Below, one piece after another: positions 4,886 to 27,600 of a DNA stretch of 59,884 nt. Origin of the DNA: a virus (lineage: Duplodnaviria; Caudoviricetes). The stretch covers positions 1 through 59,884 of IMG/VR virus record IMGVR_UViG_3300001765_000186; one strand, given 5' to 3'. Position 1 is the stretch's first letter. Each line of letters opens with the position of its first letter. Both the position numbers and the translations under genes were made by a program. Below the pieces are notes generated by a model. It was not told the DNA's origin. It did not search any database and was given only the letters and a program-made list of their open reading frames with translations.

Positions 4886-5893
4886 ATGGAATCCAACCAA
4901 AACGAAAACCGCGCTCTGCAAACTGTTGTGGATGACACACCCGAGTCCACGGGTCGTATCAGCGCCGGAAGCCTCATGCTCGACTCGGACACCATGGGCA
5001 CATTGATGCGCGTTGCCGACCTCATGGCCGGTGGCAAGTCCACCGTGCCCCTGCACTTGCAAAAGAACCCGTCCGACTGCATGGCAGTGTGTACGCAAGC
5101 GATGCAATGGGGGATGAACCCCTTTGCCGTGGCACAGAAGACCCACATAGTGAATGGCACGCTGGGCTATGAAGCCCAGTTGGTAAATGCCGTTGTGCAG
5201 CAGTCAGGCGCTATCGTGGGCCGCTTTCACTACGAGTACAAGGGCGACTCCCCGCAAATCAACTGCCGCGTCGGTGCCGTCATCCGTGGCGAAGTGGACA
5301 TCACATGGGGCGAGTGGCTGCACGAAGGCAAGGTAACGACCAAGAACAGCCCACTGTGGAAGACAAACCCCAAGCAGCAAATGGGATACCTGCAAGTGAA
5401 GAACTGGGCACGTCTGTACGCTCCCGGTGCTTTGCTGGGCGTCTACACACCGGACGAACTGGACCAGCCGCTACCGCGCAACATGGGCCACGCCAATGAA
5501 GTGCCTACTGAGTCCTATGTAGCAACATCTGAATTGGAAGCCAGCGCCCGCAAGGCCGCCAGCGAAGGCAAGGCCAGTTTTGCAGCCTTCTTCAATGGAC
5601 TGCCCAAAGCAGACCGCCCGCATCTGCGCAGCCTGCGTGCAGAACTGGATCAGATCGCCACGGATGCCGACGCGGCCCGTACCGTTGAAACACCAGCAGC
5701 CAGCACAACCAACCAGTCAACCGGCGAAGTAACTGTGACATTCGCCCAGGTGATTGCCAAGCTGGACATGGCCGACAACGAAGACAAGTTGTATGTGGCG
5801 TATGACTGGGCCAATGCGATGGACGACCAAACCCGCATGGCCGAAGTTGAAGCCCACTTCAATGCCCGCCTCACCACTATCCGGGGCGAATAG
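4886..5893 (+). CDS. recT: RecT-family single-strand annealing protein
   Basis: VPLHLQKNPSDCMAV..QAMQWGMNPFAVAQKTH, LGYEAQLVNAV, LGVYTPDEL. Confidence 0.9.
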   Translation: MESNQNENRALQTVVDDTPESTGRISAGSLMLDSDTMGTLMRVADLMAGGKSTVPLHLQKNPSDCMAVCTQAMQWGMNPFAVAQKTHIVNGTLGYEAQLVNAVVQQSGAIVGRFHYEYKGDSPQINCRVGAVIRGEVDITWGEWLHEGKVTTKNSPLWKTNPKQQMGYLQVKNWARLYAPGALLGVYTPDELDQPLPRNMGHANEVPTESYVATSELEASARKAASEGKASFAAFFNGLPKADRPHLRSLRAELDQIATDADAARTVETPAASTTNQSTGEVTVTFAQVIAKLDMADNEDKLYVAYDWANAMDDQTRMAEVEAHFNARLTTIRGE

Positions 5894-5895
5894 TC

Positions 5896-6705
5896 ATGGG
5901 TTTCATCATCGTCAACTGTGAGCAGGGTTCCCCCGAGTGGCACGAAGCGCGTGCCGGGGTCATCACTGCCAGCAACTTCAAAATCGCAAGAGAGCGCGTA
6001 GGCGGTTTGACAGACCAGCAGCAGCTTTTCGTCAATGCCGTTCGTGCTGGCCGGTCGGATGCCGAAGCCGGTGAACTGGCCGGGTACAAGACCAAGGTGA
6101 AGCGCACTGACACCGTAGAGCGGGCCATCATGGGCCTGCCAATTGGTGACTTCTCGGAGGCAGCCAAGAACTACGCCTTTCGTGTAGCCGTCGAAGGTAT
6201 CAGCGGCGTCCCCCTGGACGAAGGCTTCACGACTTGGGCCATGAAGCGCGGCAATGAACTGGAACCAGAAGCCCGCCACCGTCACGAAGAAGAAGCCGGT
6301 GTGATTGTGGAGCGTGCTGGGTTCGTCACCACCATGGATGGCGCATTCGGTGGATCTGCTGACGGCTTGATAGGCGATACAAAGGGCAGCGAATACAAGT
6401 GCCTTGTGTCCCCCGAGGGCCTGCGCGATGTACTGCTGGAGAACGACATTAGCGCGTTCACCGACCAGATTCAAGGCTGCATGTGGATCACGGGCCGCAC
6501 GGCATGGCATTTCGGCCTGTACTGCCCTGCCCTTGCGGCAATCGGTATGGACTTTACGTGGCAAGAAGTTGCCCGCGATGACAACTACATCGAAAAGCTG
6601 GAGTCGGACCTGATGCGCTTTCGTTCCCTGGTTCAGCAGTACACGTCAAAGCTGCGACTGATGGGCCGGTCTGCAAATGTCGATTTGATGCGCCAAGCCG
6701 CATAA
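5896..6705 (+). CDS. YqaJ/lambda-exonuclease family protein
   Basis: EQGSPEWHEARAGVITAS, MKRGNELEPEAR, SADGLIG, EYKC, QIQG. Confidence 0.9.
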   Translation: MGFIIVNCEQGSPEWHEARAGVITASNFKIARERVGGLTDQQQLFVNAVRAGRSDAEAGELAGYKTKVKRTDTVERAIMGLPIGDFSEAAKNYAFRVAVEGISGVPLDEGFTTWAMKRGNELEPEARHRHEEEAGVIVERAGFVTTMDGAFGGSADGLIGDTKGSEYKCLVSPEGLRDVLLENDISAFTDQIQGCMWITGRTAWHFGLYCPALAAIGMDFTWQEVARDDNYIEKLESDLMRFRSLVQQYTSKLRLMGRSANVDLMRQAA

Positions 6706-7773: not shown

Positions 7774-8322
7774 ATGGCATCCGTAAATAGAGTCATTGTT
7801 GATGTTGATGAAATACAGAGAATGTATGTCTCTGATTTTCTGAGCATCCCACAGATAAGCAGCGCCATCGGCGTATCACAGTCAACAGTCAGGAACCGCC
7901 TTCATGATCTTGGTGTACTCCGCGCCAGAACCGAGGCGATCAGAGTAGCGGCAGCAATCGGCAGGCTAGGTAGCGGGCTGCGAGGAAAGACAAGAACCTT
8001 TACAGAAGATTGGTGCCGCAACATTTCCACTGCCAAGCTGGCATTTGGTGAAAAGTTCGCCAAAGGGGTGGCAAAAAAAACAAGTGGCTATATGGAGTTC
8101 ACTCGCGGCCAACACAAAGGCCGAATGGTCCACGTTGTCACCATGGAAGAAAGCATTGGCCGCAGGATTCTTCCGGACGAAGTTGTTCATCACATTGATG
8201 AAAACAAAGCCAACAACCAGTTGACCAATCTGCAACTAATGACCAGATCTGAACACTCCGCACTTCACAGCCAAATCACAGTCAAAAACAGAAAGCGAGA
8301 TAGTCATGGCAAGTTTGAATAA
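7774..8322 (+). CDS. HNH homing endonuclease with N-terminal HTH
   Basis: HVVTMEESIGR..DEVVHHIDENKANNQLTNLQLMTRSEH. Confidence 0.88.
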   Translation: MASVNRVIVDVDEIQRMYVSDFLSIPQISSAIGVSQSTVRNRLHDLGVLRARTEAIRVAAAIGRLGSGLRGKTRTFTEDWCRNISTAKLAFGEKFAKGVAKKTSGYMEFTRGQHKGRMVHVVTMEESIGRRILPDEVVHHIDENKANNQLTNLQLMTRSEHSALHSQITVKNRKRDSHGKFE

Positions 8323-8794
8323 AGTCCACCTAATTGGTAACGTGGGGCAAGACCCAACAATGCGCTACATGGGCGACGGCAAAGCAGTCTGCAACATATC
8401 CGTAGCCACCAGCACCCGCCGCAAGAACCGCGAAACGGGCGAAGTCACCGAGTCCACCGAATGGCACCGCGTCACCTTCTATGAACGCCTTGCAGAGATT
8501 GCCGGTGAATACGTGCGCAAGGGCAAGCCCGTGTATGTGGAAGGCCGCCTAAAGTACGGCAAGTACACCGACCAAGCAGGTGTAGAGAAAAACACGGCAG
8601 AAATCATCGCTACCGAATTGCAATTGCTGGGTGGCCGCGACGACGCACCACAGCAAGGCCAAGCGCCACAAGGCCAGCCCGCACAGCGCCAACAGCAGCC
8701 ACAACGCCAACAACGGCCAGCAGAGCCGCAACGTCAACAAGCCCCGCGCCCCGCCAGCGGGTTTGACGATATGGACGACGACATCCCGTTTTAA
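8306..8794 (+). CDS. ssb: Single-stranded DNA-binding protein
   Basis: NKVHLIGNVGQDP, TEWHRV, KGKPVYVEGRL, acidic DDDIPF tail. Confidence 0.97.
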   Translation: MASLNKVHLIGNVGQDPTMRYMGDGKAVCNISVATSTRRKNRETGEVTESTEWHRVTFYERLAEIAGEYVRKGKPVYVEGRLKYGKYTDQAGVEKNTAEIIATELQLLGGRDDAPQQGQAPQGQPAQRQQQPQRQQRPAEPQRQQAPRPASGFDDMDDDIPF

Positions 8795-8830
8795 AACCCG
8801 AACCCACAACACACCCACTCAAGGACAACC

Positions 8831-9022
8831 ATGTTTGACAATCTCACCAGCGGCTCAGTGAAGACCGCAATGAAAGATGCTGGAGCCAAGTCTGCCGATC
8901 TGTGGATGGTCCCCATTGCGGACATCCGGGAGGCCGAAGGCTTCAACGTCCGCGCCTACAACGCCCACCGCGAAGACCACAAGATTGCAAACCGCCAGGG
9001 CATCGGCGGCAAGAAGTTCTAA
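8831..9022 (+). pseudogene. Short chimeric ORF: ParB-like N-terminus fused to MazG-like C-terminal tail
   Basis: ..EAEGFNVR joined directly to AYNAHREDHK..GGKKF; family assignment from recall. Confidence 0.5.
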
Positions 9023-9069
9023 CGCCGCGATAAGCGGTGCGAAGCATCCGATTGATTGACCTGTTATAC
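9017..9069 (-). mobile_element. attC-like site 1
   Basis: TTCTAAC...GATAAGCGGTGC-GAA-GCATCCGATTGATT...GTTATAC hairpin with extra G and T in the right arm on the + strand. Confidence 0.75.
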
Positions 9070-9086
9070 GGACGAAGAAAGAACAT

Positions 9087-9635
9087 ATGCAAGCACTAAA
9101 TTTGGCGAACAACAGCACAACAAACGCACGGCGAGAACTGGATTTTTACCCAACGCCGCCCGATGTTACCCATGCACTTATGAAGTTTTTGGACTTAGCG
9201 CCATGCACTATTTGGGAGCCTGCTTGTGGGGATGGCGCAATGGCAGAGGTACTGAAAAAGTATGCCACTACTGTGCTTTGCAGTGATTTGCGCGAGACAG
9301 GTTACGGCGAGGGTGGTGTGGATTTTCTGACGGAACGGCGCGACTGTGGCGCGATCATTACAAACCCGCCATTCAATGTGAGCGAGGACTTTATTCGCCA
9401 TGCGCTACCGCAAGCTGGTGTAGTGGCGATGGTTCTTAAATCCCAATACTGGCACGCAAAGAAGCGTACCGCGCTTTTTACAGAACACCCGCCAGCATGG
9501 GTTCTACCGCTGACTTGGAGGCCGGACTTCATGGGTGGAGAGCGCGGTGGCGCACCAACGATGGAGGTTCACTGGACGGTGTGGGTGCGCGGGGACGCGG
9601 ACACCAAATACCGACTACTTAGCCGAGTCGTATAA
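9087..9635 (+). CDS. Orphan amino-(N6-adenine-type) DNA methyltransferase, cassette-borne
   Basis: DFYPTP, IWEPACGDG, IITNPPF. Confidence 0.88.
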   Translation: MQALNLANNSTTNARRELDFYPTPPDVTHALMKFLDLAPCTIWEPACGDGAMAEVLKKYATTVLCSDLRETGYGEGGVDFLTERRDCGAIITNPPFNVSEDFIRHALPQAGVVAMVLKSQYWHAKKRTALFTEHPPAWVLPLTWRPDFMGGERGGAPTMEVHWTVWVRGDADTKYRLLSRVV

Positions 9636-9684
9636 CACCGGCAATGAGGGGCGCGAAGCGTCCCACTCGATTAACCAGTTGGGC
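9630..9684 (-). mobile_element. attC-like site 2
   Basis: GTATAAC...AATGAGGGGCGC-GAA-GCGTCCCACTCGATT...GTTGGGC hairpin. Confidence 0.75.
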
Positions 9685-9703
9685 TGAGGCCCGGAGAACA
9701 ACG

Positions 9704-9934
9704 ATGGATGACAGAGTGACCTTGATCGGAGTGCGCGCAGACGGCACGGAGGAAGTTTTGGGCACTGCGCCAACGCCAGTAAGGATGAAGGCCCGCGAAC
9801 TTGCGAGAGAGCAGTTCGGGTGGTTTGAGGATGATGATGGCTCAGACGCTGAGCTGTGCTTTGGCGCAATGGATCAGCTCATCGACTGGATGCTTGCTCA
9901 AGGCTGGACACCACCGAAGCTGGTGGCAGCCTGA
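9704..9934 (+). CDS. Hypothetical 76-aa protein, cassette-borne
   Basis: GGAG RBS; bounded by GTTGGGC and GCCCAAC. Confidence 0.7.
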   Translation: MDDRVTLIGVRADGTEEVLGTAPTPVRMKARELAREQFGWFEDDDGSDAELCFGAMDQLIDWMLAQGWTPPKLVAA

Positions 9935-9935
9935 A

Positions 9936-9954
9936 GCCCAACGCAATGTAGACG
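9936..9954 (-). mobile_element. attI-like simple site or cassette insertion point
   Basis: Minus strand CGTCTAC-ATTGC-GTTGGGC; no attC-type hairpin arm. Confidence 0.45.
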
Positions 9955-10061
9955 TCAAACCCCGGTTGATACAGACTTTTATCCACCCAACAAAACCAGC
10001 CTCTAGCCCCCGTGGGGTATGAGCACATTGCTACATTAAATATAGCGACAAAGGACGCAAG

Positions 10062-10361
10062 ATGACCACAACCCTACAAACCGCAGGCGAAGCCACCGGG
10101 TATCTGAGCAAGATTGAACGTATTGTTGCCGAGCAGGCAGTGGAGATTGAGAAGCTAAAGGGCCACATCAAACACATCGGCAACGATGCACTGCGCAGTG
10201 AGGTTGAGAAGCTGCGCAAGGATGCTGAGAGGTATCGCTGGCTGCGTCGTGGCGACAACGACGAAAAGGTTTTGGTCATCGGAAAGTATCAAAGCTATCT
10301 GCCGCGCAACGAAAAGCTAGACGAACTGATCGACGCCGCAATCCAAAAGGAAACACCATGA
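10062..10361 (+). CDS. Hypothetical phage protein (DAERYRWLR motif)
   Basis: AAGGA RBS; common phage motif; ATGA overlap. Confidence 0.75.
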   Translation: MTTTLQTAGEATGYLSKIERIVAEQAVEIEKLKGHIKHIGNDALRSEVEKLRKDAERYRWLRRGDNDEKVLVIGKYQSYLPRNEKLDELIDAAIQKETP

Positions 10362-11227
10362 CCACAGACACACAAGACTTGCAGAAGCGGCTGCGCGACA
10401 TTGCAAGCAAAGGCGTATCTATGTGGGGCGACCTGCAAATGGAAGACGCTAAGGAAATCGAAATCTTGCAAGCAGAGCGCGACAACTTGGCGTCTGCAAA
10501 TGCAAGGCTTACCGCAGAACTTGGCGACTTGCCCGAGGCACAGGCAGACATGCTGCACACGATCAAAGAATTGAAGGCGCGGCTGGCGCAAGCAGGCGCA
10601 TCCCCGGCACGCAATAACCAGTTCATGACGCCCGGTTGTGGTGCTGGAGGATTGGGTGCAAAAGAAGGCGCACCCACGGTGAAGCCATTCCAGCAGCGCG
10701 TTTTGCCGTGGCTACATGCGTGCTTCGGTGATGTGATTGCTGCCGATAAGGTCGAGCGCAATCACCGGTTCCTTGAAGAGTCGCTGGAACTGGTGCAGGC
10801 ATGTGGCTGCACTCAAAGCGAAGCACATCAACTGGTTGACTACGTATTTGGTCGGCCAGTGGGCGAGATACCCCAAGAGATCGGTGGCGTGATGGTGACT
10901 CTTGCCGCCCTGTGCCTCGCGCAACAGGTCGATATGCATGCATGCGGGGAAGCCGAGTTGACACGGATTTGGACCAAGGTGGAGGCCATCCGCGCAAAAC
11001 AGGCTGCGAAACCGAAGCACTCGCCACTGCCACAGGCCGCGCAGCCAAGCCAAGCGGGGCTAAGCGACACACAGTTGCTCAACTGGATGCAATCGAAAGG
11101 TGGTCAATGGGTTTGCCGCGACTCAACAACCGGACGCGGCTGGAGGCTTTATCAATCAATGTACACCGGCTCTTTGTCGGTGCGGGAAGCAATCATCGCA
11201 GCCCTCAATGCTAAGGGAGGCGTATGA
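10358..11227 (+). CDS. Multidomain protein with MazG-like NTP-pyrophosphohydrolase domain
   Basis: RFLEESLELVQA...QEIGGVMVTLAAL acidic helical motif. Confidence 0.6.
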   Translation: MTTDTQDLQKRLRDIASKGVSMWGDLQMEDAKEIEILQAERDNLASANARLTAELGDLPEAQADMLHTIKELKARLAQAGASPARNNQFMTPGCGAGGLGAKEGAPTVKPFQQRVLPWLHACFGDVIAADKVERNHRFLEESLELVQACGCTQSEAHQLVDYVFGRPVGEIPQEIGGVMVTLAALCLAQQVDMHACGEAELTRIWTKVEAIRAKQAAKPKHSPLPQAAQPSQAGLSDTQLLNWMQSKGGQWVCRDSTTGRGWRLYQSMYTGSLSVREAIIAALNAKGGV

Positions 11228-12978: not shown

Positions 12979-13959
12979 ATGGCCTCCCCAAGCAAAACCA
13001 AGGAAGGTAGCTGGCGCATCATCGTCACCGTCAAGGGTGTACGCGATTCGGCTACCTTTGCCACCAAACGCGAGGCTCAGGAATGGGCTGGACAGCGTGA
13101 GGCTGAAATGCGTGCTATCGGGGCGGGGCGAATCTCGGAGTTCGTAACCACGCACCAAGCCATATCCCGCTACCTGGACGAGGAAACCCCGAAGCACCGG
13201 GGTTCCAGCCGGGAGCATGATCGCGTGGTTGCTCTCAAGGCGCAGTTTCCCGACATCCCTCTATCCAAGGTGACGCCCGCTCACATCATTGCGTGGCGCG
13301 ATGCACGGTTGTCGCAAGTCAAGCCAGCCACGGCACTGCGCGAACTAAAGATTGTGGACCTGATCTTCAAACGCTGCTGCTCACTGGAGTGGCGCTACCT
13401 TCGGGAAAATCCCTGCAAGGGTGTCGACCGGCCAAAGGGTTCCGCGAGTCGCACAAGGACTATCAAGGGCACCGAAGTTAGGGCCATGTTGCGCCAGCTT
13501 GGATTCCCCAAACGGGATACGCCCGTCCATGCTGTGGGCTGGTTGTTTCTGTTGGCGCTCTGCACGGGGATGCGCCAGGGCGAATTGCTGGGCATCCATT
13601 GGGGCCATGTATTCCCCAAGTACATCCACTTGCCAAAGACCAAAAACACAGAGCCGCGTGACGTACCGCTATCCCCCGCCGCCCGCAAGATACTGGAGCG
13701 GATGCGGGGCTACCACGCGGTTAGCGTGTTCAATCTGACTACCGCCAAGACCACCCAAGAGTTTGCAAAGGCACGGACCAATACCGGGTTAAGTGGGTTC
13801 ACATTCCACGATTCGCGCCACACCGCCGCCACCAGAATAGGACGATCTGGCAAGCTGACGCTTATGGAAATGTGCAAGATGTTTGGGTGGAAAGACCCGA
13901 AGATGGCGCTCGTTTACTTCAACCCGACCGGCGAAGATTTGGCCGACAAGTTGGGCTGA
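12979..13959 (+). CDS. int: Tyrosine integrase
   Basis: TGMRQGEL, KTKN, FHDSRHTA, FGW, Y in ALVYFN. Confidence 0.93.
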   Translation: MASPSKTKEGSWRIIVTVKGVRDSATFATKREAQEWAGQREAEMRAIGAGRISEFVTTHQAISRYLDEETPKHRGSSREHDRVVALKAQFPDIPLSKVTPAHIIAWRDARLSQVKPATALRELKIVDLIFKRCCSLEWRYLRENPCKGVDRPKGSASRTRTIKGTEVRAMLRQLGFPKRDTPVHAVGWLFLLALCTGMRQGELLGIHWGHVFPKYIHLPKTKNTEPRDVPLSPAARKILERMRGYHAVSVFNLTTAKTTQEFAKARTNTGLSGFTFHDSRHTAATRIGRSGKLTLMEMCKMFGWKDPKMALVYFNPTGEDLADKLG

Positions 13960-15564: not shown

Positions 15565-15678
15565 TCAATCCCGCGTGAAGACCCACACCAAGCCAATCAA
15601 AATAATTATTCCGATTGGCCCGGTTGCTAACCCTGCACCCAGTAGCCCGATTGCAACGCTGACGTTGCCAAGGTTCAC
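15565..15678 (-). CDS. 37-aa hydrophobic peptide
   Basis: GTG start overlaps the TGA of the giant gene; TM-like GIIILIGLVWVF. Confidence 0.45.
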   Translation of the reverse strand: MNLGNVSVAIGLLGAGLATGPIGIIILIGLVWVFTRD

Positions 15679-18600
15679 CGGGCTTCCAGTTCTTGACGCA
15701 CAGCCGCGCGAATCTCTGCCGGGGCAGTCTTCGCAATACGCTGTTCTTTGGTCATGTTCATTTGCTTCACGCGGCTCAAGACTTGAGAGAATTTGATGCT
15801 GATGGGGGACTCGGGGTTGGTCGCATTCCATTTTGCCAGATCCTCCCGCGCAGCCTTCACTTTTTCAACGTCCTTTTCAAACAATCCCTTTGCCCACTCG
15901 TCGGCAATCTCGCTCTCGCGCATCTTGTTCAGACCAATCATTCGCACGGCCTCTTGTCCTGCGTCCTGCACGCGCTTTACATCATTGGGCTGGAACCCGA
16001 TGGCCTTAGCGAGTACGTCTGAGCCGTCCACGTCAATGACCTTTTTCCCAGACTGGTCCCGATACATACCGGTGGTGTACATATCGTAGGCTTTGACGAG
16101 GTTCCGCGCCGCAACCGGCGAAGCGGTCATGATGGCACCATCCACTCCAAAAACATGCCCTCCTATTGCTTTTCCAGCAGCTTCAAACCCGCGCTTTGCC
16201 AAGTCACCCACGGGGCCAAGCACTTCCGTCACGTCCCTGGTGTGGTCGGTCTTCTTGGTGAACAGGCCCGTGCCTGGGATCAGGTTGCCCAGTCCCATGC
16301 GTCCGCTCACATCGATAGGCACACCGGGCAAGCCAGAAATGCCGCTCTCCATAAACCGTGCCCCGCCCTCGCCAAACAGTTCCACGAAAAACGCCTTGCG
16401 CTTCGCTGCACTGTCAAAGTTGTAGCCCATGGACTGCAACACACCGCTGATGATGTCGTCCAAATCCTCTGCGCCAGGGAAGCCACCGGCACCGGCCATC
16501 AAGAACAACACACCCAGCGCCAGCGCAGCGGCCTTCTTACCCTCGGGTCCGTTCTTCGCCATGCGCGAGAGCATTTCCACGTAGCTCACCGAAAACTGTT
16601 TGAAGGTGAACAGTGTTGCGCCGATAGCGCCCCGCGCCCACTTGGGTTTATTGCCCTTGTTGTAGATACCCTGAGTCTCGCTGATTGCCTTGCGTGCGAA
16701 CCCGTCGGGGTCGGCCATGCCTTCGGCTACTGCGGTGCGGAATGCTGCAATAAACGTGACCCTGCGGTTGAACTGCTCGGCCACGCCGAACAGCTTGCCC
16801 CATGCCAGACCCAAGCGGGCAACCCCGTTTTGTGCCGTGGCCAGCGCATTGCCCGCCGTGGTGCCGTCGCCAGAGCGCAAAGCGCCCTTACCTTGGGATT
16901 GCTGCATCAACTGGTGCACCTCTTGCGGGCTCACGGTGCCATCTTCCTCTGCACGCTTGATAGCTGCATCCAGCTTGGCATCGCCCGTGCGGGCTTTCAG
17001 AGCATCCTGCATGGCCGCCGTCATCTGCTTGGCCGCCTTGATGCCGCCGCCGTACTGCGACAGCCAAGGGAATGTCATGGTTATGGGCTGTGTCAAGTTG
17101 ACCATGGCCGATGCAACGCTGCCGCCAATGTACTGGGCGAACATCAAACCACGTACCGCCTGGGCTTCTTCCATGGGGTTCTGGATGTAGTCAACCAGTT
17201 GCACGGCTGCATCCTTCAACTCGCCGTCGCCGTTCTTGGTGCCGTCGGGGTTCTGGCCGACCACGCTTGCGGCTTCGGACATTTCACCCATGTGCAGGTT
17301 CTTGGACGACTGGCGGGCGTTGGAGTAGACGAACCCGGCCAGCACCCGGCCCGCGTCTTCGCTGAATCCAGCAATGCCCTTGCGGGTCATCAAGCGTTTC
17401 ATGCTGGAACGGTTGTTCTTCGCCAGCTTGATGTATGTCTGGAAAGCCTTGGCCGCCGCGTCGTCGCCCTTGGCCTCCAACCCCAGCATGTCGCCAAACA
17501 GTTCCAGCGTTTCAGGGCTCACGCCAGCGAACAGTTTGTATTCCTCCTGGGACACGGTGTCACGCTTCACGGTCGCACCTGGGTGCAACGCCGTCATATC
17601 CCGCGCCATCTTCGCCGCGTCCATGGTGGACTCAAACATGCCGAAGTAGACCCGTTCGCCCTCGGCGTCCAGCACGTCTACCGTGTGTTGCCCAAAGCGG
17701 GACAGCGGAGCATAGCCACGGTCGATCAAGTCAAGCGCACGGGTGCCCTTGTCGATGATGGTGTTGGCCGTGTCGGTCAGCACGTTGGTGCGTGCGGAGT
17801 CGCCGTCATCCGTCAGAGACAACAGGTAGTCGCGCAGGGTTTCAGCCGCCTCCATGGCGGTCTTGCTGCTCTGCACCACGTCGCGGATGGGTGCCGCGTC
17901 TTTGCCCGCGTAGCGCAGCATGTCGGTGATAGCCAAGTTGGTAAGGCTCTTGTTGGTGGCCGCGCGAAACTCCTTGTACAGCGGGATCTGCTTTTCGTTC
18001 AGCCCGAACATGGACTTCAACTCGGCATCCTTCCACACCACGCCAGGGCGCAGCATTTCCCGCTCGTACTTGCTTTCAATCAGGGCGTTGTACTGGTCAA
18101 GCTGCATCCCGCGCCACATGGTCATCACCTGATTGGAAACGAGGTTCTTGCGAATCAGGATCTGCGCCTTGTCGGCGGTCGGGATCTTCGCGGCCTCGGC
18201 CTCCAGTACTTCCATCTTTACCGGCTTGCCGGATGTATCCCGGCCCCACAGCAAGGTGCCTTCAAACACCGGGCGGCTCAGTGCCTTGGCATCTTCTGGG
18301 CTCATGGCAGCGCGTGTGATGTCCTTCCAGCTTTCCAGCTTCGGCAAGATGGTCGGCGCAAGGTCTGCCGCCTCGGTGGCAAAGTAGCTCACGTCGTTGA
18401 TGAAGTTCTGCACGCCATCAAACACCCGCTTGAAGGCCGTGGACCGCTGGGCAAGGTTGTATTGCGTGCCCACGGTCTTGTGCCACCAGTTCAGTTTGCC
18501 GGGTACAGAGCCAATCAGGTCGTTGACCTTGTAGCCTGCGGGTAGCGCCACGTCGCGCACGCTGTTGGTTGCGCTGGTCAGGGTGTCGCCAACGGAGCGG

Positions 18601-21600
18601 CTGAACATGGTTTCAGCATCGTCTGCCCTGCTCATAGCTGGCAATCCACCGCCACCACCGCCAGGGCCGCCACGCTCCACCCACGCACGCGCGGGCAGGA
18701 TGTAGTTCTGGATCAGTTCATTGTCCGACAGGCGCATGTTGTTGAAACCCGGCACGTTCTGGCGCAGCCAAGTGCGTACAGCCGCAATGGCACGCTGCAC
18801 GAATCCAAGCTCGGGCTTTGTCTGGGCTAGTTCTGCAAGCACTTCCTCTGCTGCGGTGAACCGGTCCAGTTGGCTACCCATCTTCAAACCGTACTGCGTG
18901 ATCTTCGCGTCCACTTCTGCTTTGCGCATCATGGCCACGCCCCGCAAGATAGGGCGCAGTGCCTTACCAAAGGTGCCGCGTAGACCGTAGTGGCCCAGCG
19001 ACTCATGGAACAACACTCGCGCGATGTCGTTGGGCGTGCCCAGCTTGGACGACATCAAGTACACGGTGCCCTTGTAGTAGAAACCCTCCGGCGTGCCGGA
19101 TGCCCCGCCGCTTCGCTGGCGCTGGTCTTCTGCCCTGACTTTCTCAGGGATCACCGGGTCGTTCATGTCGAAAGCGATAACCACCTCTGGCGGGTTTTCC
19201 CAATGCGATGCGATGCCGCGTGCCAAACGCTCCACCGATTCATTGGCCTGGGACTGTGCGCCACGGCTGAACGTGGGGCGGGAGAAAACCACGTCGGTTG
19301 TATTTGCCGTGGTGTCTGGGATAGCTCCCATCGCACCTTCAAGGGTTTCCCCGTCGGCGGTCGCGGTCACACCAGCACTAGATAGGTTCCTCAAAACCTC
19401 TTGGTGCTTCTTGCGCAGTTCCACCAGCTTTGGCTGGTCCGGCCAGTCACCAGATACAGGGGCTGCATCCAGTTCGGCCTTTTCCCTCTTGGCGTTTTCC
19501 AGTTGACGTTTTTCATATTCGTGCTGCTGGCGGGCGCTCACGGCCAAGTTTTCAGCCATAACCACCACCACTGGGACGGTGCGCTCTATCCCCGCCTCAT
19601 CTACAGCATAAAGGCTGCGAGCATTTGAAATAGTCTGCCCCATATAGGTCAGCACTACGTCAAGCACTTTTTCAAGTTTTGCGCTCTGCCCTTCGACTGA
19701 TACGCTAAATGGCCCCAGCTTGCCAATCTCCTTGACTTGCTCATCGGCAATGGATTCGGCAACTGCCTGCCGAATGGCCGTAGCAATTTGCGTCCGGCGA
19801 TTGAATGCTTCTCCACCAAACGTCCAGGCTATCGGCTCCCGGTCGCCTCGAAGGTTGGAGAATGCTTCGGTCAGTTTGTCGCGGGAAGTGAACACCTCGC
19901 CGTTCATGTTCACCGACAACGGCACAGGGCGGGCGGCCCACGGGTTGTAGTCGGCGGCCTTCTTGTCCTGCTCGGGCTCGGCTGCTACCTGGGCTTCCGT
20001 CAGTTGGCGGCCTCCATACTTGCCGTCGGCTTGGCGCTGCATGTAGACCTTGTTGTCGATCATGGCCAGGAGCACTGCCCCGGCTTCCTTTGCGTCGGTG
20101 TAGTCCTTGCCGTCGATAGTGGCCTTGAAGCCCTCGCCAATGGCGGCCAGTTCAGTGCGGTACTGGTCGGATGCCTCGGCCATGCCCTTGGACGATTCAA
20201 TTTTTGCCGGTAGGCTTTCCAGCTTCTGCGACACGCTATTTTTGCGGCTTTGCAGGTCGGACTTCTGGGCATCGAATGCCCGCTTGCGCTGCTCCAGCTT
20301 CTTGATTTCGCCCTTGATCTGGATTTCGCGCAACAGGTCGATATTGCCGGTGGCCGCCGCTTGCATTTCGCCTGCGGACAGTTCCAAGTCTTCAAATGCG
20401 TTTTCGATGTCGCGGCCAATCTTGCGGGTGCGCAACTGGTTAATCATCTTGAGTTTGGTTTCCTGAACCTGCCACATGCGCATGTCCAGTGTGTCCTGGG
20501 TCACATAGGCCAGGATCTCTACTTCAAAGCCTGGGAGCCCGCCCGCGCGGCCTTCAACCGGGGCCAGGGTGTTGCCCTGCCGGATAACGCGCCCTTCGCG
20601 CTGCTCCACGTCTGACGGCTTCCACGGCACGTCCAGATGGTGCAAGGCGACAAGCCGCTCCTGCACGTTGGTCCCAGCGCCCAGCTTCTGGGTGGAGCCC
20701 AACAAAATACGGATCTGGCCCGAATTTACCTTGCGGAACAGACCGGCCTTTTGCTCGTCCGTGTTGTAGTCGTGGATGAAGGCGATTTCGTTCTCGGGGA
20801 TACCCTTCTCAATCAGTGCGGCTTTCAGGTCGTCGTACACAGAGAATCCACGCTCGGCGGCCTGCATGGCTCCCAGCCAGTCGCGGCCCTTGGCTTCCAA
20901 TTCCTCCTGCGCGTCCTCGGCGTCGTCGATCTTCGCCTGGGCGGCCTCGTCACCCAGCGCAGCACGGCCCAACAGTTCATCGCCATACCCGGCTTCAATG
21001 CGGTCCTTGAGTACTTGGTACTCTGCCAATTCCTTCTTGGCAGTCTTCAAAGGCGTGCCAAGGTCAGAGAACACCAGTTGCGTGCCCTTCACATCGTTGT
21101 ACTGCTTGTAGCGGGCGAACAGTTCTTGCGATGCACGGTCGATGCGTCCACCGGCTTCCCGAACGGTGATAGTCGGGTCCACCAGCCGCACATCCATGGC
21201 GGCCTTGCGGGCGTCGGACATGATGACAAGAATATTGTCTTCACCCTTCTGCGGCGGGCCTTTGCGCTTCTCCAGCGCCAGGGCACGATTGGCGATGTCG
21301 GCCATGTACGCTTCCTGGGCGGCTGATTTGCGCAGCGACATAGGCGTGCGCTTGCCGCCTTTCAGCTTGGGCAATGGGAACTCGCGGCCCTGGTTTTCTT
21401 CCGAGAATGCCTTTTTGACATCCTCCATGGTCACGGTGTCGGAAACTTGGTCAAACACCTTCAATAGCTCGGGCGTGTTGACGAAGTTGCTCATGCGGTT
21501 TTGCGCCTTGAAGCCGTCGGCACTGGCCTTCTGCATCCACACCTGTTCAACCGATGCGTAGGTGTTGGCCCATGCGTCGAACGACTCAAAGCCCATTTCC

Positions 21601-24600
21601 TCCATCTGCGTTGGCATGAGGTAGCGCATCATGTGGTACATCTCGGCCAGCGAGTTGGATACCGGAGTGCCGGTCGCAAAAACCACCCCTTGCCCGCGCC
21701 CGTTGCGCTCATACAGTTGGTTGGCCTTCACGTACATATCATAGGCACGCTGGCTGCCCTTGCTATCACCCAAGCCCGCAATGTTCTGCATCTTGGTGCT
21801 GAACATCAAATTCTTGAACATATGGGCTTCATCAACAAACAGTTGGTCTACACCCAGTTCCCCGAAGTCGAGTAGCGAGTCCATGGGCTTGTCGCGCAGT
21901 GCCTTGATGCGGTTCTCCAGGCGCTCCTTGATGCCCTCCAATTGCTTGATGGTGCGCTTCTTCTGTTGCTTCTCGCCGTCGCCGTTGTCCACTTCCCGAA
22001 TGGTCTTGACGATGTTTTCCACCTGCTTGGTGTTGAATGCGGCCTCAAAGTCAGGCGCTGGCCGGATGAACCCATAAGACGAGTGCGCGATGATGACGGC
22101 ATCCCAATCGCCCGTGGCGATCTTCGCCAGGAACTTGCGCCGGTTGGACTTTTCAAAATCCTTCTTGGTCGCGGTCAGGATGTTGGCACCGGGGTACAGC
22201 TTGTAGAAGTCAGCCGCCCACTGCTTCACCAAGTGGTTCGGCACCGCGATCATGGGCTTCTTGGCCAGACCGGTGCGGCGCAGTTCCATCGCAGATGCGA
22301 TGACGGTATAGGTCTTGCCGGAGCCCACTACGTGGTCAAGCAGGGCCGTGCGGTCCTGCACGATACGCGCGATGGCGTTGCGCTGGTGGCGTCGGAACTC
22401 CACAATAGCGTTGGGCACCTTGCCAGGAAACGTCATCCATGCGCCGTCATACTGGCGGGTCACATAGTTGTTGTTGGTGTCGTTGTACGCGCGGCCCAGC
22501 AGTTCGGCCCGGTCGGCGTCGGAGAATAGCCAGTCTTGGAACTTGTCGCGCATTTCCTGCGCCTTGGCGTTGGCATTCTCCGTGCCGGTCACGTCGGTGT
22601 GCGTCTTCCCCTCGGCGTCTTTGTACGTCACCTTGACCGGCTTGTTGTTCAGCAGCGCAGAGAGAATGTCCGAGCCCCGATAGTCCGGCGTGCCCCATGT
22701 GTTGGTGTTGGCGGTGTCGCTCCCGGCGTGGATGTAGGACGAGTAGCCGCCCGAAGCCTTCACATACTTGATGCTGGCGTCCGTGCCCTCGCCCAACAGG
22801 CTCTTGGCAAAGTCTTGGTAGACCGACTCTGGCACCCATGGGGAACCGATACGCGCGTTGATTTCATGCGCTCCAACGTCCTCGGGCTGCACAGTCTCCA
22901 GGGCCTTGATGTTGTTGAACATGCCCGCCTGCTTGGCTTGCACCAGCTTGGCGCGGACATTGCCCGACAAGTAGGCATCGCGCAGCACGTATTCACCGGT
23001 CGCGGGGTCGTTGAACAGCAGCGGCGAGTCACCGCCAGACAGTTCGTGCAGCGCCTCGTCGGCATCCTTGCCCAGCAGTTCACCGATGTATTTGGTGTCC
23101 AGCCTGCCACGCTCGGCCATGGACACATTCAGCGCATCGGCGGGGCTCTCCACCTTGGCAACTTGCTGGCGGGCGTCGATCACCCGGCGGGTGAATATCG
23201 GCCCCTTGTTGGCCGTGGATGGCACCATCTTGATGCCCATGGACTTGGCAGCGGCCAGACCGATTGCCGGGGTGTAGCCATACTCCAGCGAAGCCAGTAG
23301 CGGGAAGTCTGGATCATCACCAAACACCCGAATGGTGCCGGGGTCGTTGATGCGCCCATGGTCCTTGGTGAATGCGTCGTACTGGTCGTTCAGCGTCTTG
23401 CGCAACGCTTCCATGTTGGCATCATTGGCCAACTCGGCGGCCAGCAGGCTACGCACGGTGGAGCGCATACCGGCCAGGGACTTGATGCGGTTAAACCCGT
23501 TGTCACCCAGCTTGGTTTCTTCGGTCCACTGGCTCTGTGCGGTCACTTCCTGCGCCCGCGCCTCGCCCGCGATGTCCTTGATACGCTGGAACAGCTTGCC
23601 GTCTTCCTCAAAATACCCGCCCTCTTGCACCTGGGGGTTTTGCAGCGTCTTGATAAGCGCGTCCTGCAAGCTGGCCGTGTTGGTGATGGCGCGGTCCACG
23701 TAGACATTCGCGGGCAGCTTGGATACCGCCTCCTTGAGCAATGCCGCTGTGTCTTGTCCAGGCTTTTGCACCAGTGCGGTGGATTCACCCCGGTACATGG
23801 TCCCATATGCGCCAAACTTGCCCAGCATCATTTCTGGGTGGTCGATGAAATACTGGTTCAGCGGGACAGTGCGCCCTTCTGCGTCAGTGATTTGGCCAAC
23901 GGCCAGCCACTCCTTGGCATTCGCACGCGCGGCCTTGCCGCCCCACTCCGATTCGGGCAGCTTCTGCAAGAAAATCAGGTCGGTGGTTACTTCGGTGTTC
24001 GCGTTCTTGCTGAATGCGTTGTTCGGCAACCGGATAGCGCCAAGTAGTTTTGTCTTTTCAGCGATGTACTTCCGCGCGGTGTCGGTTTGAGCATCCATGA
24101 AAGAATTGGTGATGACCTGGGCCAGAATGCCGCCCTCGCGCAGCATGTCCACTTCCTTGGCGAAAAAATAGTTGTGCAGGGACAGGCCAGACAGGTGCTT
24201 GCGCCCCGAACGGTCTACCTGTGGATCTGACGCGAACGGGGGATTGCCGACCGCCACGTCGTAGAAGTCATCATTGCCGACGAACTCGGTGAAGTCTGCC
24301 TCTTGGATGTTCTGCTGTGGGTACAGGTTGCGGGCAATCTTCGCGGAGAACGGTTCCCGCTCAATGGCGGTGAACCGGCTTGCGCTGCGCATGGTCGCGG
24401 GCATCAAGCCAATGAAGTTACCTACACCGGCTCCACCCTCCAGGGCGCGTCCACCGGCAAACCCGAAGCGCTCCAGGGCGGCATAGATGCCGTCCTGAAC
24501 CACTTGGCGGGACGTGAAGTGGGCGTAGCGCGTGGATACCCGTGCGTCGGCATAGTCACGCTCCGACATCAAGCCCTTCAACTCGGTGTATTCCTTGGAC

Positions 24601-27600
24601 CAGTCGGCGTTATCTTCGTCAAACGCCTGGGCCAAACCGCCCCAGCCAACGTACTTAGCCAATACGGCCTGCTCGGTCGGCGTGGCCATGCGGCCATCGG
24701 TGTCCAGTTGGGTCAACAGGCGAATCGCCTCTATGTTGCCCTTGAACTTGGCCTTTTGCCCGCCTTCGCCCAGTGCGAAGTCGTCTTCAATGGTGAAGTC
24801 TGCAAACGCTGGCGCTGGTATCGGCGCAGCGTTGGGTGCCGGGTTGGCTGGTATCAGTCCTCCCGTTCCCCCGGCAGTATCAACGAACCCAAGCCCCGGT
24901 TGTATTCCTGCATCGCCTTGAACCCCGGACTGTCCGGCGCTTCCTCGCTTGCTTCGCTTTCCTCGGGCGGGAACAGGTACTGCTCCCGTGTCGCTTCCCA
25001 CGCCTCCTGATACTTGAACCCCTGCGCTATCAGTAGATCCATTTCCTTCTGGGTCGCCTCTGCCGCTTCCGTCAGGGCTTTCTCCAGTTGGTGCGACTTC
25101 ACCAGTTCCCGAAACTTGCTCGGTTGAAACTCCCTCCAGTGGGTTCGGGCTTGTGCTATCCAGTTTGAGTGTTGCATTTTGGGTATCCTTGGCCGGAGTA
25201 TCGGCTTCATCTTCTGATTTTTCAAGTTCCTCAAGGGAATCGAAGCCCGCGACCGTCTTTTTAGAAGTCACTGGCTTGTCCTTGTGGCGACCGGCCACAG
25301 AGATATAGGCACCCTGCAAGGTGTCGAACGGGATGGCGTCAGCGGTTTCTTGGTCGATGCCATTGGCGATGAAGTCGCGCACGTAGGCCACGGCCTGCTT
25401 AAACGACACAGACCCTAATTCAATTGCACCGTCAAATAGTTCTATGACGATGGGCAAAAGCTGTTGTTCTTCCTCCTGGGTCCAGTTCATGCGCGTGTTC
25501 TTGCCTGCAAGGTGGGCCAGCTTGCCCAAGGCGTTGAACATCTTGGCTTTGGCGGCCTTCGCTTCGTCGGATAGGGCGGCTTTGGCGTCAGGCTTTGCTA
25601 CAGTTTCCGTAGCTACGGGCGCATTATCGGCGGGGGCTAGAGGTTGTTTTGTCTCTGCCTTCACTTCCTCAATGCTGGGCACGTCATCACGCTTGCCGTC
25701 GATAAAGTCTTGAATGGCCGGTGAACTGGACTTTGCCCCGGAATACGTCGGGTTTGGCTTTGCCTCGTAGCTCTGCATTTCTGCGTCAAGCTCGTCGTTC
25801 TGGCCTTCCAGTTGCGCAATCTCCCGCTTGATCTGGTTGATCTGCGTTTCCAGCCGGTCATCACCAACCATGCCGTTTGCATCCTGCTTGGCTTGCAACT
25901 CCATCAGCATGTTGCGGGCTTTGGTGACTGGGCTTAGTTCAGCCGCATTCGCAGTTTGCATATTGCGAACGGGTGCAGCATCCGGCCCCATCACCTTGAC
26001 CAGCTTGTCCTGCACGCGCGGTGCCAGATTCTCCCAAGACTTGAACTGCAACTTGTCGGCGGTAACCTGGGGAAACCCTGCCTTGAGGATCAGGACCATC
26101 CGGTCAACATTGCGGGTCCGCGTCCACTCTATTTCGGCTACGCCTTCTGGGGTTTCGGCTGGTTGTTGCGCTTTTGACGGCTTGGCTTTGGTGGTTTGAG
26201 TGCCATTGTCTTGTCCTTGAGTAGTTGCTACAGGTTTGATAGCTGCTTGCGCAGTATCTGCGGGGGCTACAGGCGCTTCTTGCTTGGATACGATGTCCCA
26301 GCGCGTTGCACTTGTCTTCACGGCCTTGTGGGTGTCCTTCAAACCATTCTTGGTGATGAACTCCCCGGCCTTCATGGGGTTGCCGAAATAGGCCGAGCCC
26401 TTGGCAATACGGTCTATGGCCTTGGCACGCTTCTGCGGGATGCCAAACAGGTGATCCATGTCGGCCTTGACGCTACCAAGGCTGGCGGGGCCGGGTGCTG
26501 GTTTCCCTGCGCTCCCTGCGCTCCCTGCGGGATTTTTCTCTACCCCATTGGCTTCCACCTGGGCGGTTCTGGCTCCGGGTGCGGGTTCAGCGGCATCTGT
26601 ATTTGCTCCCACAGCTTGCGCCTGCGCGTCTGGCGTGGCTTCGGTTCGCGCTGTGGGCTCGTTGGCTGCTGGCGTTGGGTTTTCGACACGGAGCACGTCC
26701 TTTGCGGTGAAGCCTGGGCCTGCACTGGCAGTCACCTGCGTGCCAAGCGATTTTGGCTGTGGGTTTCCTTGGGCTACTGGCGCTGCATTGCCTCCACCGG
26801 CCTGTTCACCAGATTGACCCACGTAATCAGCAACTGCTCCGCTCGGGTTGTCTCCCTCGGAGAGTCGATCAAGTTGTCCAAATTCCACGCCTCCAACGGC
26901 GTTATCGCCAACAGGTCCAGCGGGTTCTGTGCTTCCGGGTTCAGTTCCAGTAGTTGGGCTGACATTGAATGCGTCCTTGAGTCGGGCCACAAAGCCATCA
27001 AACACCGGGGCAATGGTCCAGCCAGTGCCCTCCAACTTTGCGCGGCGTGCTGCTGCAAACCGTGTTGCAAATGGTGCGCCCATGCCGTTGAGGATGTCGC
27101 CATCCTGGGTGCCTTCGTACTTGCGGCCACCGTCGGCCACCGCTTGATTGCTGAACAGAACCGCCCGCTTGTCTTCCTCGGACATCTGCGCCTCGGCCAA
27201 TGGGCCTTTGGTGATTGCCTGGGTGGCTGTGTCCTGCTGCTGCGCTTCTGCCTCCTGCTGGGCCATGTGCGCCTCGTAGACGGCTCGGTCTTGGTCAACG
27301 ACCTGGGTCTGCTGGATTTCGTCATGGATGCCGCCGTCCACCGCACCAGCGGCCACGCGAGACAACGGGCCAGCTTCGGGCGTGATGCCCATGGCCTGGG
27401 ATGGCTTGATGGGGTCAAGGGCACCGGTAGATGCCAAGATTTCATCGTCATGGCTTGCCACGGCACGCTGGGCGGCCAACTGCGCATCGCGCTCTTGCTG
27501 CTGCTGCGCCTGCTGGGCGGTCAGTGCCGCACGGCCATCAGGCGGCGTAGTCTGCGCGACGTTCGGCGCACCCACTTCCTCAGATTGCACAGTTGCAAGC

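Follow-up and report, generated by a model that had tools for sequence, protein, structure and literature searches.

attC sites and genes of inverted polarity in the early recombination operon of a P22-like temperate phage

The IMG/VR virus record IMGVR_UViG_3300001765_000186, which was analysed in full and is called the window here (59,884 bases, linear, with a completeness estimate of 96%), is a temperate, P22-like phage that encodes a P22-like portal and a capsid protein, with the caveat that IMG/VR virus labels can be wrong. We found that two elements in its early recombination operon, E1 and E2, are attC sites of the kind carried by integron cassettes, and that the genes following them have a polarity opposite to that of genes in bacterial cassettes. 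The reading we favour, with a probability of roughly 0.8, is that the locus is a short integrase-less cassette array (CALIN) of two inverted cassettes, which would have been inserted, and could be exchanged, by an integron integrase (IntI) acting in trans. Downstream of the single-strand-binding protein gene SSB, the order is orf63, E1, a methyltransferase gene, E2, orf76, a gap of 127 nucleotides (nt) and orf99 (10062).

E1 and E2 as attC sites

The original prediction had described two hairpins with GCGAAGC apices, bounded by boxes in or beside which the genes stop, and all these boxes, apices and stops were found in place: the methyltransferase TAA lies within GTATAAC, and orf76 ends at 9934 with its box at 9936. 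In E1 the apex, a GAA-capped stem, is located at 9039-9045, with extrahelical T9047 and G9054 on the + strand. In E2 the stem spans 9646-9668 with the apex at 9653-9659, and T9661, A9665 and G9669 are unpaired on the + strand, appearing as bulges in the fold. The two are copies of one element, with a 23-nt direct repeat core that is 78% identical and ~69% identity overall, and the methyltransferase gene is flanked by a perfect 9-nt inverted pair, TGTTATACG (9062-9070) and CGTATAACA (9629-9637). The boxes have the attC-type AAC and GTT ends, which are invariant in 19/19 of the seed sites described below. The consensus of attC outer boxes is RYYYAAC and GTTRRRY, and some outer box positions of E1 and E2 deviate from it.

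We aligned 19 such elements with MAFFT as the seed of a covariance model, R1, for which the consensus structure was supplied by hand. This structure pairs 71.3% of the cells, compared with 64.5 +/- 1.6 in shuffled alignments (0/500 shuffles reached that value), and covariation is clear in the L box. R1 gave 45 matches, 34 of them distinct, in 181,855 bases from five viral records, and all were on the gene strand. Within the window it matched E1 at 44.5 bits and E2 at 44.0 bits, with no other match; an unfiltered search of 8700-10400 gave a next-best match of 7.2 bits, and on the - strand at E1 and E2 nothing appeared at E up to 10, as against 44 bits on the + strand. A third attC 3' of 9936 was considered and rejected, as R1 left it unscored and the position holds half a box only. 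R1 had no match near 31 bacterial methyltransferase homologues (462,300 bases searched) or in 40/76 other viral methyltransferase loci (295,544 bases).

Because the circularity of R1 had to be removed, a second model, R2, was built from bacterial sites only, namely 123 chromosomal attC sites, some of them beside IntI genes. A search of 236,504 bases with R2 gave, within the window, + strand matches to E1 (38.7 bits, E 2e-6) and to E2 (30.7 bits, E 2e-4) and no others; the positive control, attC-aadA1, scored 64.4 bits. The two models cross-detected the viral and bacterial site sets at up to 69 bits. Run on both strands, R1 and R2 agree on the attC-like nature that had been proposed for the two elements, and we conclude that E1 and E2 are genuine attC sites. 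Cury et al. (2016, PMC4889954) describe a CALIN as two or more same-strand attC sites with a spacing below 4 kb and no neighbouring IntI; E1 and E2 are 560 nt apart and both on the + strand, and IntI is absent from the record.

Integron cassettes leave a further trace in the ends of their units, and we checked, at the four variable positions, whether the 3' box of each site is complementary to the 5' box of the site that follows. All four were complementary in 20/27 consecutive viral pairs, versus 8.6% under random pairing, and in 93/110 consecutive bacterial pairs, versus 13%; the two boxes within a single site were complementary in 3/32 viral and 17/120 bacterial sites. Both pairs of the window obey the rule (GTTATAC with GTATAAC, and GTTGGGC with GCCCAAC). 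The complementary unit ends, which had been put forward as a cassette signature, are thus far more frequent than the 9-13% expected by chance, and such ends are what circular cassettes leave behind when they open within a box. With the polarity described below, the exchange point would be AA/C of the gene-ending box (the slash marks the crossover); each cassette then consists of an attC followed by its gene, and E1, not E2, goes with the methyltransferase. The proposed units survive as two units with one gene each, and their limits have been redrawn so that the attC precedes the gene (Table 1). The array ends are consistent with these limits: the left ends of arrays have a full attC directly after a backbone gene, and the right ends have a half box without attC (9936 in the window, and likewise in the viral loci L004, L005 and L172). 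In canonical integron terms the right end is the attI-proximal end, and a conserved AA/C GCAATGTA junction is found at the position expected of an attI.

It is extremely improbable that E1 and E2 only look like attC and act instead as hairpins in the early RNA, such as terminators, processing sites or anti-termination sites. Such hairpins would be expected to be intergenic, on the sense strand and with a stable GAA-capped apex, as E1 and E2 are, and attC sites are thought to hold weak terminators (Qi et al. 2023, PMC9892861). Against this, Rfam gave 0 matches at E up to 1, promoter-like sites showed no excess in a scan of the locus, and terminator-like sites showed no excess either, with none at E1 or E2 and no T run after the stems. 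Transcript hairpins would also leave the complementary unit ends and the match to IntI-linked sites unexplained. An RNA role in addition to attC function could still be held by E1 and E2. Two features were rejected as signals in themselves: the window has 15 copies of GCGAAGC where 13.1 +/- 3.7 are expected, which is chance level, and the fold energies are those of ordinary single-strand DNA. The GCGAAGC-capped hairpins of the original prediction are present as described, with an apex count and a fold energy no better than chance.

Table 1 Features of the array and of its surroundings in the window.
Feature	Position	Strand	Remarks
RecT	4886-5893	+	early recombination operon
YqaJ exonuclease	5896-6705	+	early recombination operon
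DUF2303 gene		+	early recombination operon
HNH endonuclease (HNH_3)	7774-8322		overlaps the SSB start by 17 nt, within the recombination module
SSB	8306-8794	+	last operon gene before orf63 and the array
orf63	8831-9022	+	backbone gene left of the array; TAA stop within the E1 5' box
attC site E1	9017-9069	+	53 nt; 5' box TTCTAA/C at 9017-9023, 3' box GTTATAC at 9063-9069
Methyltransferase cassette	9023-9635	+	E1 from C9023, leader, open reading frame, GTATAA; limits by AA/C crossover
Orphan DNA methyltransferase	9087-9635	+	182 aa; phrog_799, E 2.7e-54; TAA stop within GTATAAC
attC site E2	9630-9684	+	55 nt; 5' box GTATAA/C, 3' box GTTGGGC at 9678-9684
Second cassette	9636-9941	+	E2 and orf76, ending GCCCAA
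orf76	9704-9934	+	GGAG precedes the start; followed by GCCCAAC at 9936-9942
Array right end	9936-9950	+	half box GCCCAA/C (9936-9942) joined to conserved backbone CGCAATGTA
75-nt backbone element	9992-10066	+	just upstream of the orf99 start; outside the cassettes; marks the shared insertion locus
Phage tyrosine integrase	12979-13959	+	Pfam Phage_integrase, E 1.3e-14

Polarity of genes relative to attC in viral and bacterial arrays

Plasmid R100, with intI1 on the + strand and aadA1 on the - strand, served as an outside control. R1 scored its attC-aadA1 at 53.0 bits opposite aadA1 and at 12.5 bits on the aadA1 strand. Three genomes, G078, G053 and G006, have an IntI that scores above the NCBIfam cut-off; in these, intI is encoded on the model strand, and the arrays lay upstream of intI. 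The strand modelled is the canonical attC bottom strand and is the phage coding strand. As the bottom strand is the recombinogenic one, the phage genes are inverted relative to those of bacterial cassettes.

This comparison was extended to a first set of viral sites, to bacterial sites and to a motif scan of viral contigs. The scan gave at least 120 stretches, with 80 loci listed; R2 was run on 78/80 of these (674,552 bases; the two omitted were records already studied) and found 302 sites, of which the best 150, from 54 loci, entered the strand tests. Viral contigs are non-independent samples, and the counts should be read with that caveat. The longest open reading frame (ORF) lay opposite the model strand in 103/112 bacterial sites, 11/29 sites of the first viral set and 38/94 motif-scan viral sites. 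Taken alone, this rule placed the gene on the model strand in 18/29 and 56/94 viral sites, and it was rejected as too noisy for small cassettes. Two other tests were adopted for that reason. A strict coverage call (model strand, opposite strand, unclear) gave 0, 79 and 28 for bacterial sites, 11, 3 and 14 for the first viral set, and 22, 9 and 46 for the motif-scan viral sites. The second test, which asks whether the 3' box is directly followed by a ribosome-binding site and a start codon with an ORF of 40 aa or longer, was positive on the model strand in 27/31 sites of the first viral set, 74/112 motif-scan viral sites and 0/114 bacterial sites, and on the opposite strand in 0/31, 5/112 and 34/114, respectively. 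PHROG families were matched by 7/10 long viral ORFs on the model strand, among them a second methyltransferase, versus 1/10 on the opposite strand.

The original prediction had placed the extrahelical G and T on the coding strand and regarded the genes as inverted relative to typical cassettes. The R100 control, the IntI-linked arrays and the ribosome-site test concur on the former, and the ribosome-site counts (27/31 and 74/112 viral versus 0/114 bacterial) uphold the latter. Inverted gene polarity is general among viral attC arrays and not peculiar to this phage.

The strand tests also bear on the idea that the array is a piece of a host chromosomal integron that was recombined in illegitimately and is passively carried, which we regard as highly unlikely. 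Fragments of chromosomal integrons occur in Vibrio phages according to Qi et al. (2023, PMC9892861), and the attC type of the window is the same as that in Burkholderiaceae arrays, both of which would suit such an origin. A host piece should, however, resemble bacterial arrays, whose genes are on the other strand (0 on the model strand and 79 opposite in the strict call; 0/114 in the ribosome-site test). In addition, proteins encoded by the viral cassettes have their matches in phage families, with none in the bacterial arrays retrieved, and the array is co-oriented with the phage operon, each gene having its own ribosome-binding site.

Turnover of the cassettes and the source of the integrase

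Comparison of cassette content in relatives, as proposed with the original prediction, showed that the right backbone and an E1-type left site are kept while the genes between them differ. We fetched 84 loci via orf63 and orf99, and R1 matched 3/84 of them (L172, L220 and L158), on the gene strand only. The 75-nt backbone element upstream of orf99 is 92% identical at L220:3883-3957 and has a partial match at L158:3928-4006. The window, L220 and L158 share the AA/C GCAATGTA junction before this element; to the left of the junction AAC lie the unrelated cassette ends GCCCAAC, GTATAAC and ATATAAC, and homology starts at AACGCAATGTA. An E1-type attC lies at the left end in each of the three, with similarity from TAAC onwards and unrelated upstream genes. 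The cargo is the methyltransferase and orf76 in the window, two small ORFs between GTTATAC and GTATAAC in L220, and two other ORFs with a short attC-like site between them in L158. As a separate observation, contigs matching the 75-nt element had a high summed depth in wastewater run X2 and stop at 10066, past the start codon; the element may be a leader or promoter region.

The methyltransferase unit itself was traced among 80 viral loci kept as relatives of the gene. Boxes were present only in the four closest relatives, L002 to L005 (74-80% identity), and homologues at 71% identity or less, viral and bacterial, had neither boxes nor attC. The boxes before the gene and at its end are GTTATAC and GTATAAC in the window and L002, GTTATGC and GCATAAC in L004 and L005, and GTTATAC and GCATAAC, with one mismatch, in L003; they thus co-vary across the window and these relatives. 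DNA homology covers no more than the methyltransferase unit, from 9052-9087 to 9611-9640, and the flanks are different genes from those of the window. In L003 and L004 the flanks are long runs of small genes, each set off by a 60-125-nt element of the same build. Metagenome contigs from three other studies (two of wastewater, one of freshwater) match 9052-9636 and then diverge, and others match E1 alone, from 9020/9021 to 9066/9067. A cassette gene of 115 aa (phrog_17296), located beside the methyltransferase in L004, is 95% identical between L004:3496-3978 and L172:4475-4911, with similarity that spans from a GTTAGGC box to a GCCTAAC box. The methyltransferase had a sub-threshold match to Pfam N6_Mtase, and it would protect phage DNA from host restriction; orf76 had no relatives among viral contigs and no PHROG family.

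The absence of IntI from the record, noted in the original prediction, was confirmed by a TIGR02249 search, which returned no IntI candidate in the window or four relatives (0/5 records). The tyrosine integrase of the window, the only tyrosine recombinase in these five records, had weak matches to NCBIfam Xer families (23 bits against a cut-off of 220) and is, judged by its sequence, a generic phage integrase and not an integron integrase. No tyrosine recombinase was found in two 100%-complete relatives, one of them with terminal repeats, and a phage-encoded recombinase acting on the arrays is ruled out for these two. Among the matches listed, IntI was found in 2/37 array-bearing viral records, G159 and G173, both less than 50% complete, and in 0/9 such records with a completeness of 90% or more, 4/9 of which have terminal repeats.

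The record G173 (L358 8264-16730) is a phage-like element with a VapE-like primase upstream, ten inverted cassettes, IntI, ParB and SSB. Its ten attC sites are on the + strand, and 9/9 consecutive box pairs are perfectly complementary; the gaps are filled by genes on the model strand, including those for an Rv2179c-like 3'-5' exoribonuclease (E 1e-53) and a DHH-family protein. Its IntI scored 479 bits and is encoded, like ParB and SSB, on the same strand as the cassette genes, which read towards intI. The backbones of G159 and G173, including intI, are 99-100% identical, and whole cassettes differ between them with breakpoints at attC. These differences indicate that inverted arrays do turn over where IntI is at hand.

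We infer that a host IntI acts in trans on this phage, because the record has no IntI and the two complete relatives have no tyrosine recombinase. The nearest bacterial methyltransferase, at 65% identity, is in a metagenome-assembled genome (MAG) of Burkholderiaceae. Matching attC sites were found in 47/151 genomes sampled from the family of this MAG, and IntI above the cut-off in 4/5 of the richest genomes. These attC sites and integrases make a host IntI plausible. The IntI, supplied by the host or by a co-resident IntI-bearing phage-like element such as G173, would have inserted cassettes at AA/C of the backbone site and could exchange them. The inverted cassette genes would be read by the phage's own early transcription, which the original prediction placed under pL, and an inverted cassette that landed in a bacterial integron would be silent.

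The strand choice may also affect exchange. Loot et al. (2017) report that recombination of the bottom strand exceeds that of the top strand about 1,000-fold, that folding and recombination of the bottom strand are favoured when it serves as the lagging-strand template, and that in most chromosomal arrays the bottom strand is found on the leading-strand template. If the early genes of the phage run with the replication fork, the sense strand would be the lagging-strand template, and we propose that an inverted array would then be maximally exchangeable. A broader view, to which we give even odds, is that phages keep an antisense cassette pool of their own, each cassette built as attC, ribosome-binding site and gene. 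Up to a dozen or more cassettes would be stacked in early operons and shuffled by integron integrases that come from hosts or from the few phage-like elements whose intI is co-directional with the cassettes (G173 and G159); the bottom strand would be the non-template strand and probably the lagging-strand template.

It is also possible, although we consider it unlikely, that the array is a fossil, assembled by IntI elsewhere and now moved only by general homologous recombination, or that of RecT and exonuclease, across attC; this and the action of IntI in trans are compatible and not exclusive. RecT, the YqaJ exonuclease and SSB are encoded directly upstream of the array, and IntI is absent. 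The methyltransferase unit shared with L002 and three metagenomes begins at 9052, inside E1, and L004 and L172 have a common unit that extends from one box to the other with different attC interiors, which fits homologous exchange inside attC as well as it fits IntI. A fossil is harder to reconcile with the right-end junction between variable and conserved sequence, which falls exactly at AAC in three phages, with the box complementarity kept in 20/27 viral pairs, and with arrays of the same architecture that gain or lose whole cassettes when IntI is present. The differing interiors suggest that homologous exchange inside attC, perhaps via the phage RecT system, also moves cassettes.

Several points weigh against the insertion and exchange of cassettes by IntI in trans and against the attC reading beneath it. 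No recombination event was seen for this phage in the data, which are contigs and blind to rare excision. The collections hold no close relative with an empty site: in the phage record collection the SSB part alone was matched, at 60-80% identity, the best orf99 homologue is 54% identical, and loci related to the orf63 tail showed neither attC nor an empty site. The link to a host family comes from one MAG with a 65%-identical methyltransferase, and only that family was sampled. The interiors of both attC sites flanking the cassette shared by L004 and L172 are unrelated, with the boxes kept, and no reading fully explains this. As for the sites themselves, R1 and R2 were built in this analysis and are not the attC model of IntegronFinder; RNAalifold found zero consensus pairs in the MAFFT alignment of the 19 elements, and the hand-given structure was supplied after this null result; a partner slide of -1 gives a covariation of 0.212 versus 0.206 in the true register. 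E1 and E2 fold no better than shuffles (z -0.64 to +0.02), and E1, at 53 nt, is below the shortest scored bacterial site (55 nt). Metagenome contigs contained no cassette-skipping joint, with bins 9720-9932 uncovered, and these contig data count neither way.

Other features were observed near the arrays or elsewhere in the window. Residues 5-48 of orf63 match phrog_1033, the start of a ParB-like family, and residues 41-63, the last 23, match phrog_5658 at the very C-terminus of a different phage family of 421 residues. By sequence, orf63 looks like a chimeric fusion remnant of two phage families, which suggests that sequence was deleted where the array begins on the left. An unrelated methyltransferase (276 aa, phrog_1008; L083:3308-4138, - strand) lies within an attC array of G002, a complete 38-kb phage genome with terminal repeats, in which ~5.5 kb is given to some ten attC-bounded units. 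Directly right of the array end in L005 (4556-4804), a palindromic motif based on TTATCAGGCAAATNTGCCTGATAA is present three times; these copies resemble repressor operators, which would mean that the L005 array adjoins an immunity or regulatory region. The window also has a single ORF of 4,287 aa at 15675-28538 on the - strand, with Eco57I-type methylase and SNF2/ResIII helicase domains, whose product may be a giant anti-restriction or virion-associated protein.

Comparison with known integron systems

Integrons have been treated as a bacterial device, and their cassettes as top-strand genes read from the integron promoter. Here, part of a phage early operon is made of true cassettes in the opposite polarity, and the same architecture is found in dozens of viral contigs, including complete terminal-repeat genomes without a recombinase of their own. 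If IntI acts on these arrays, phages would use integron machinery to swap accessory genes, likely for counter-defence (methyltransferases and nucleases); the phage and bacterial cassette pools would be separate despite one type of recombination site, and strand choice would be a testable design rule for the exchangeability of an array. Viral attC surveys should record the gene strand relative to the attC sites.

Small early genes of T4-type phages are bounded by intergenic stem-loop repeats and shuffled in modules as PeSL mobile regulatory cassettes, which carry early promoters and recombine by homology. PeSL cassettes are not known to have any relation to IntI or attC.

Phage CALINs have been reported by Qi et al. 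(2023, PMC9892861), who describe 17 CALINs without IntI in temperate and virulent phages, five methyltransferase cassettes, and phage attC sites that were recombined by IntI1 in an assay. Compared with the CALINs in that account, the arrays here are larger, with at least 12 sites at most, occur commonly in viral contigs from metagenomes and show a consistent inversion. The text of that paper does not discuss the gene strand in relation to the attC strand, and its supplementary tables might list orientations. A full-text literature search, which covered articles without their supplements, found no account of phage arrays whose genes are inverted with respect to attC. Integrase-less attC clusters of phages are thus already published, and inverted gene polarity was not found in the printed text so covered.

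The arrays of G173 and G159 resemble the inverted integron-integrase group outlined by Cury et al. (2016, PMC4889954) in that intI and the cassette genes are co-directional. In that group intI is flipped relative to attC, whereas in G173 the relation of attC to intI is canonical and the genes are flipped. The sedentary chromosomal integrons and CALINs of Burkholderiaceae share the attC family and the cassette rule with the phage array. Unlike in the phage array, their genes are on the top strand (103/112 by the longest ORF) and intI is adjacent and divergent; they reach at least 40 sites within 20 kb.

The window array has the build of integron cassettes and their attC sites (59-base elements): AAC-ending and GTT-starting boxes, an L box that carries an extrahelical G, another unpaired base (T), an unpaired spacer, complementary ends and a stop codon in the box, and R1 scores attC-aadA1 as high as its own members. 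In contrast to a complete integron, the phage array has no intI and no recognisable attI or Pc, so that expression must come from the phage operon. It differs from classical cassettes in that the phage gene is on the bottom strand and the attC precedes its gene.

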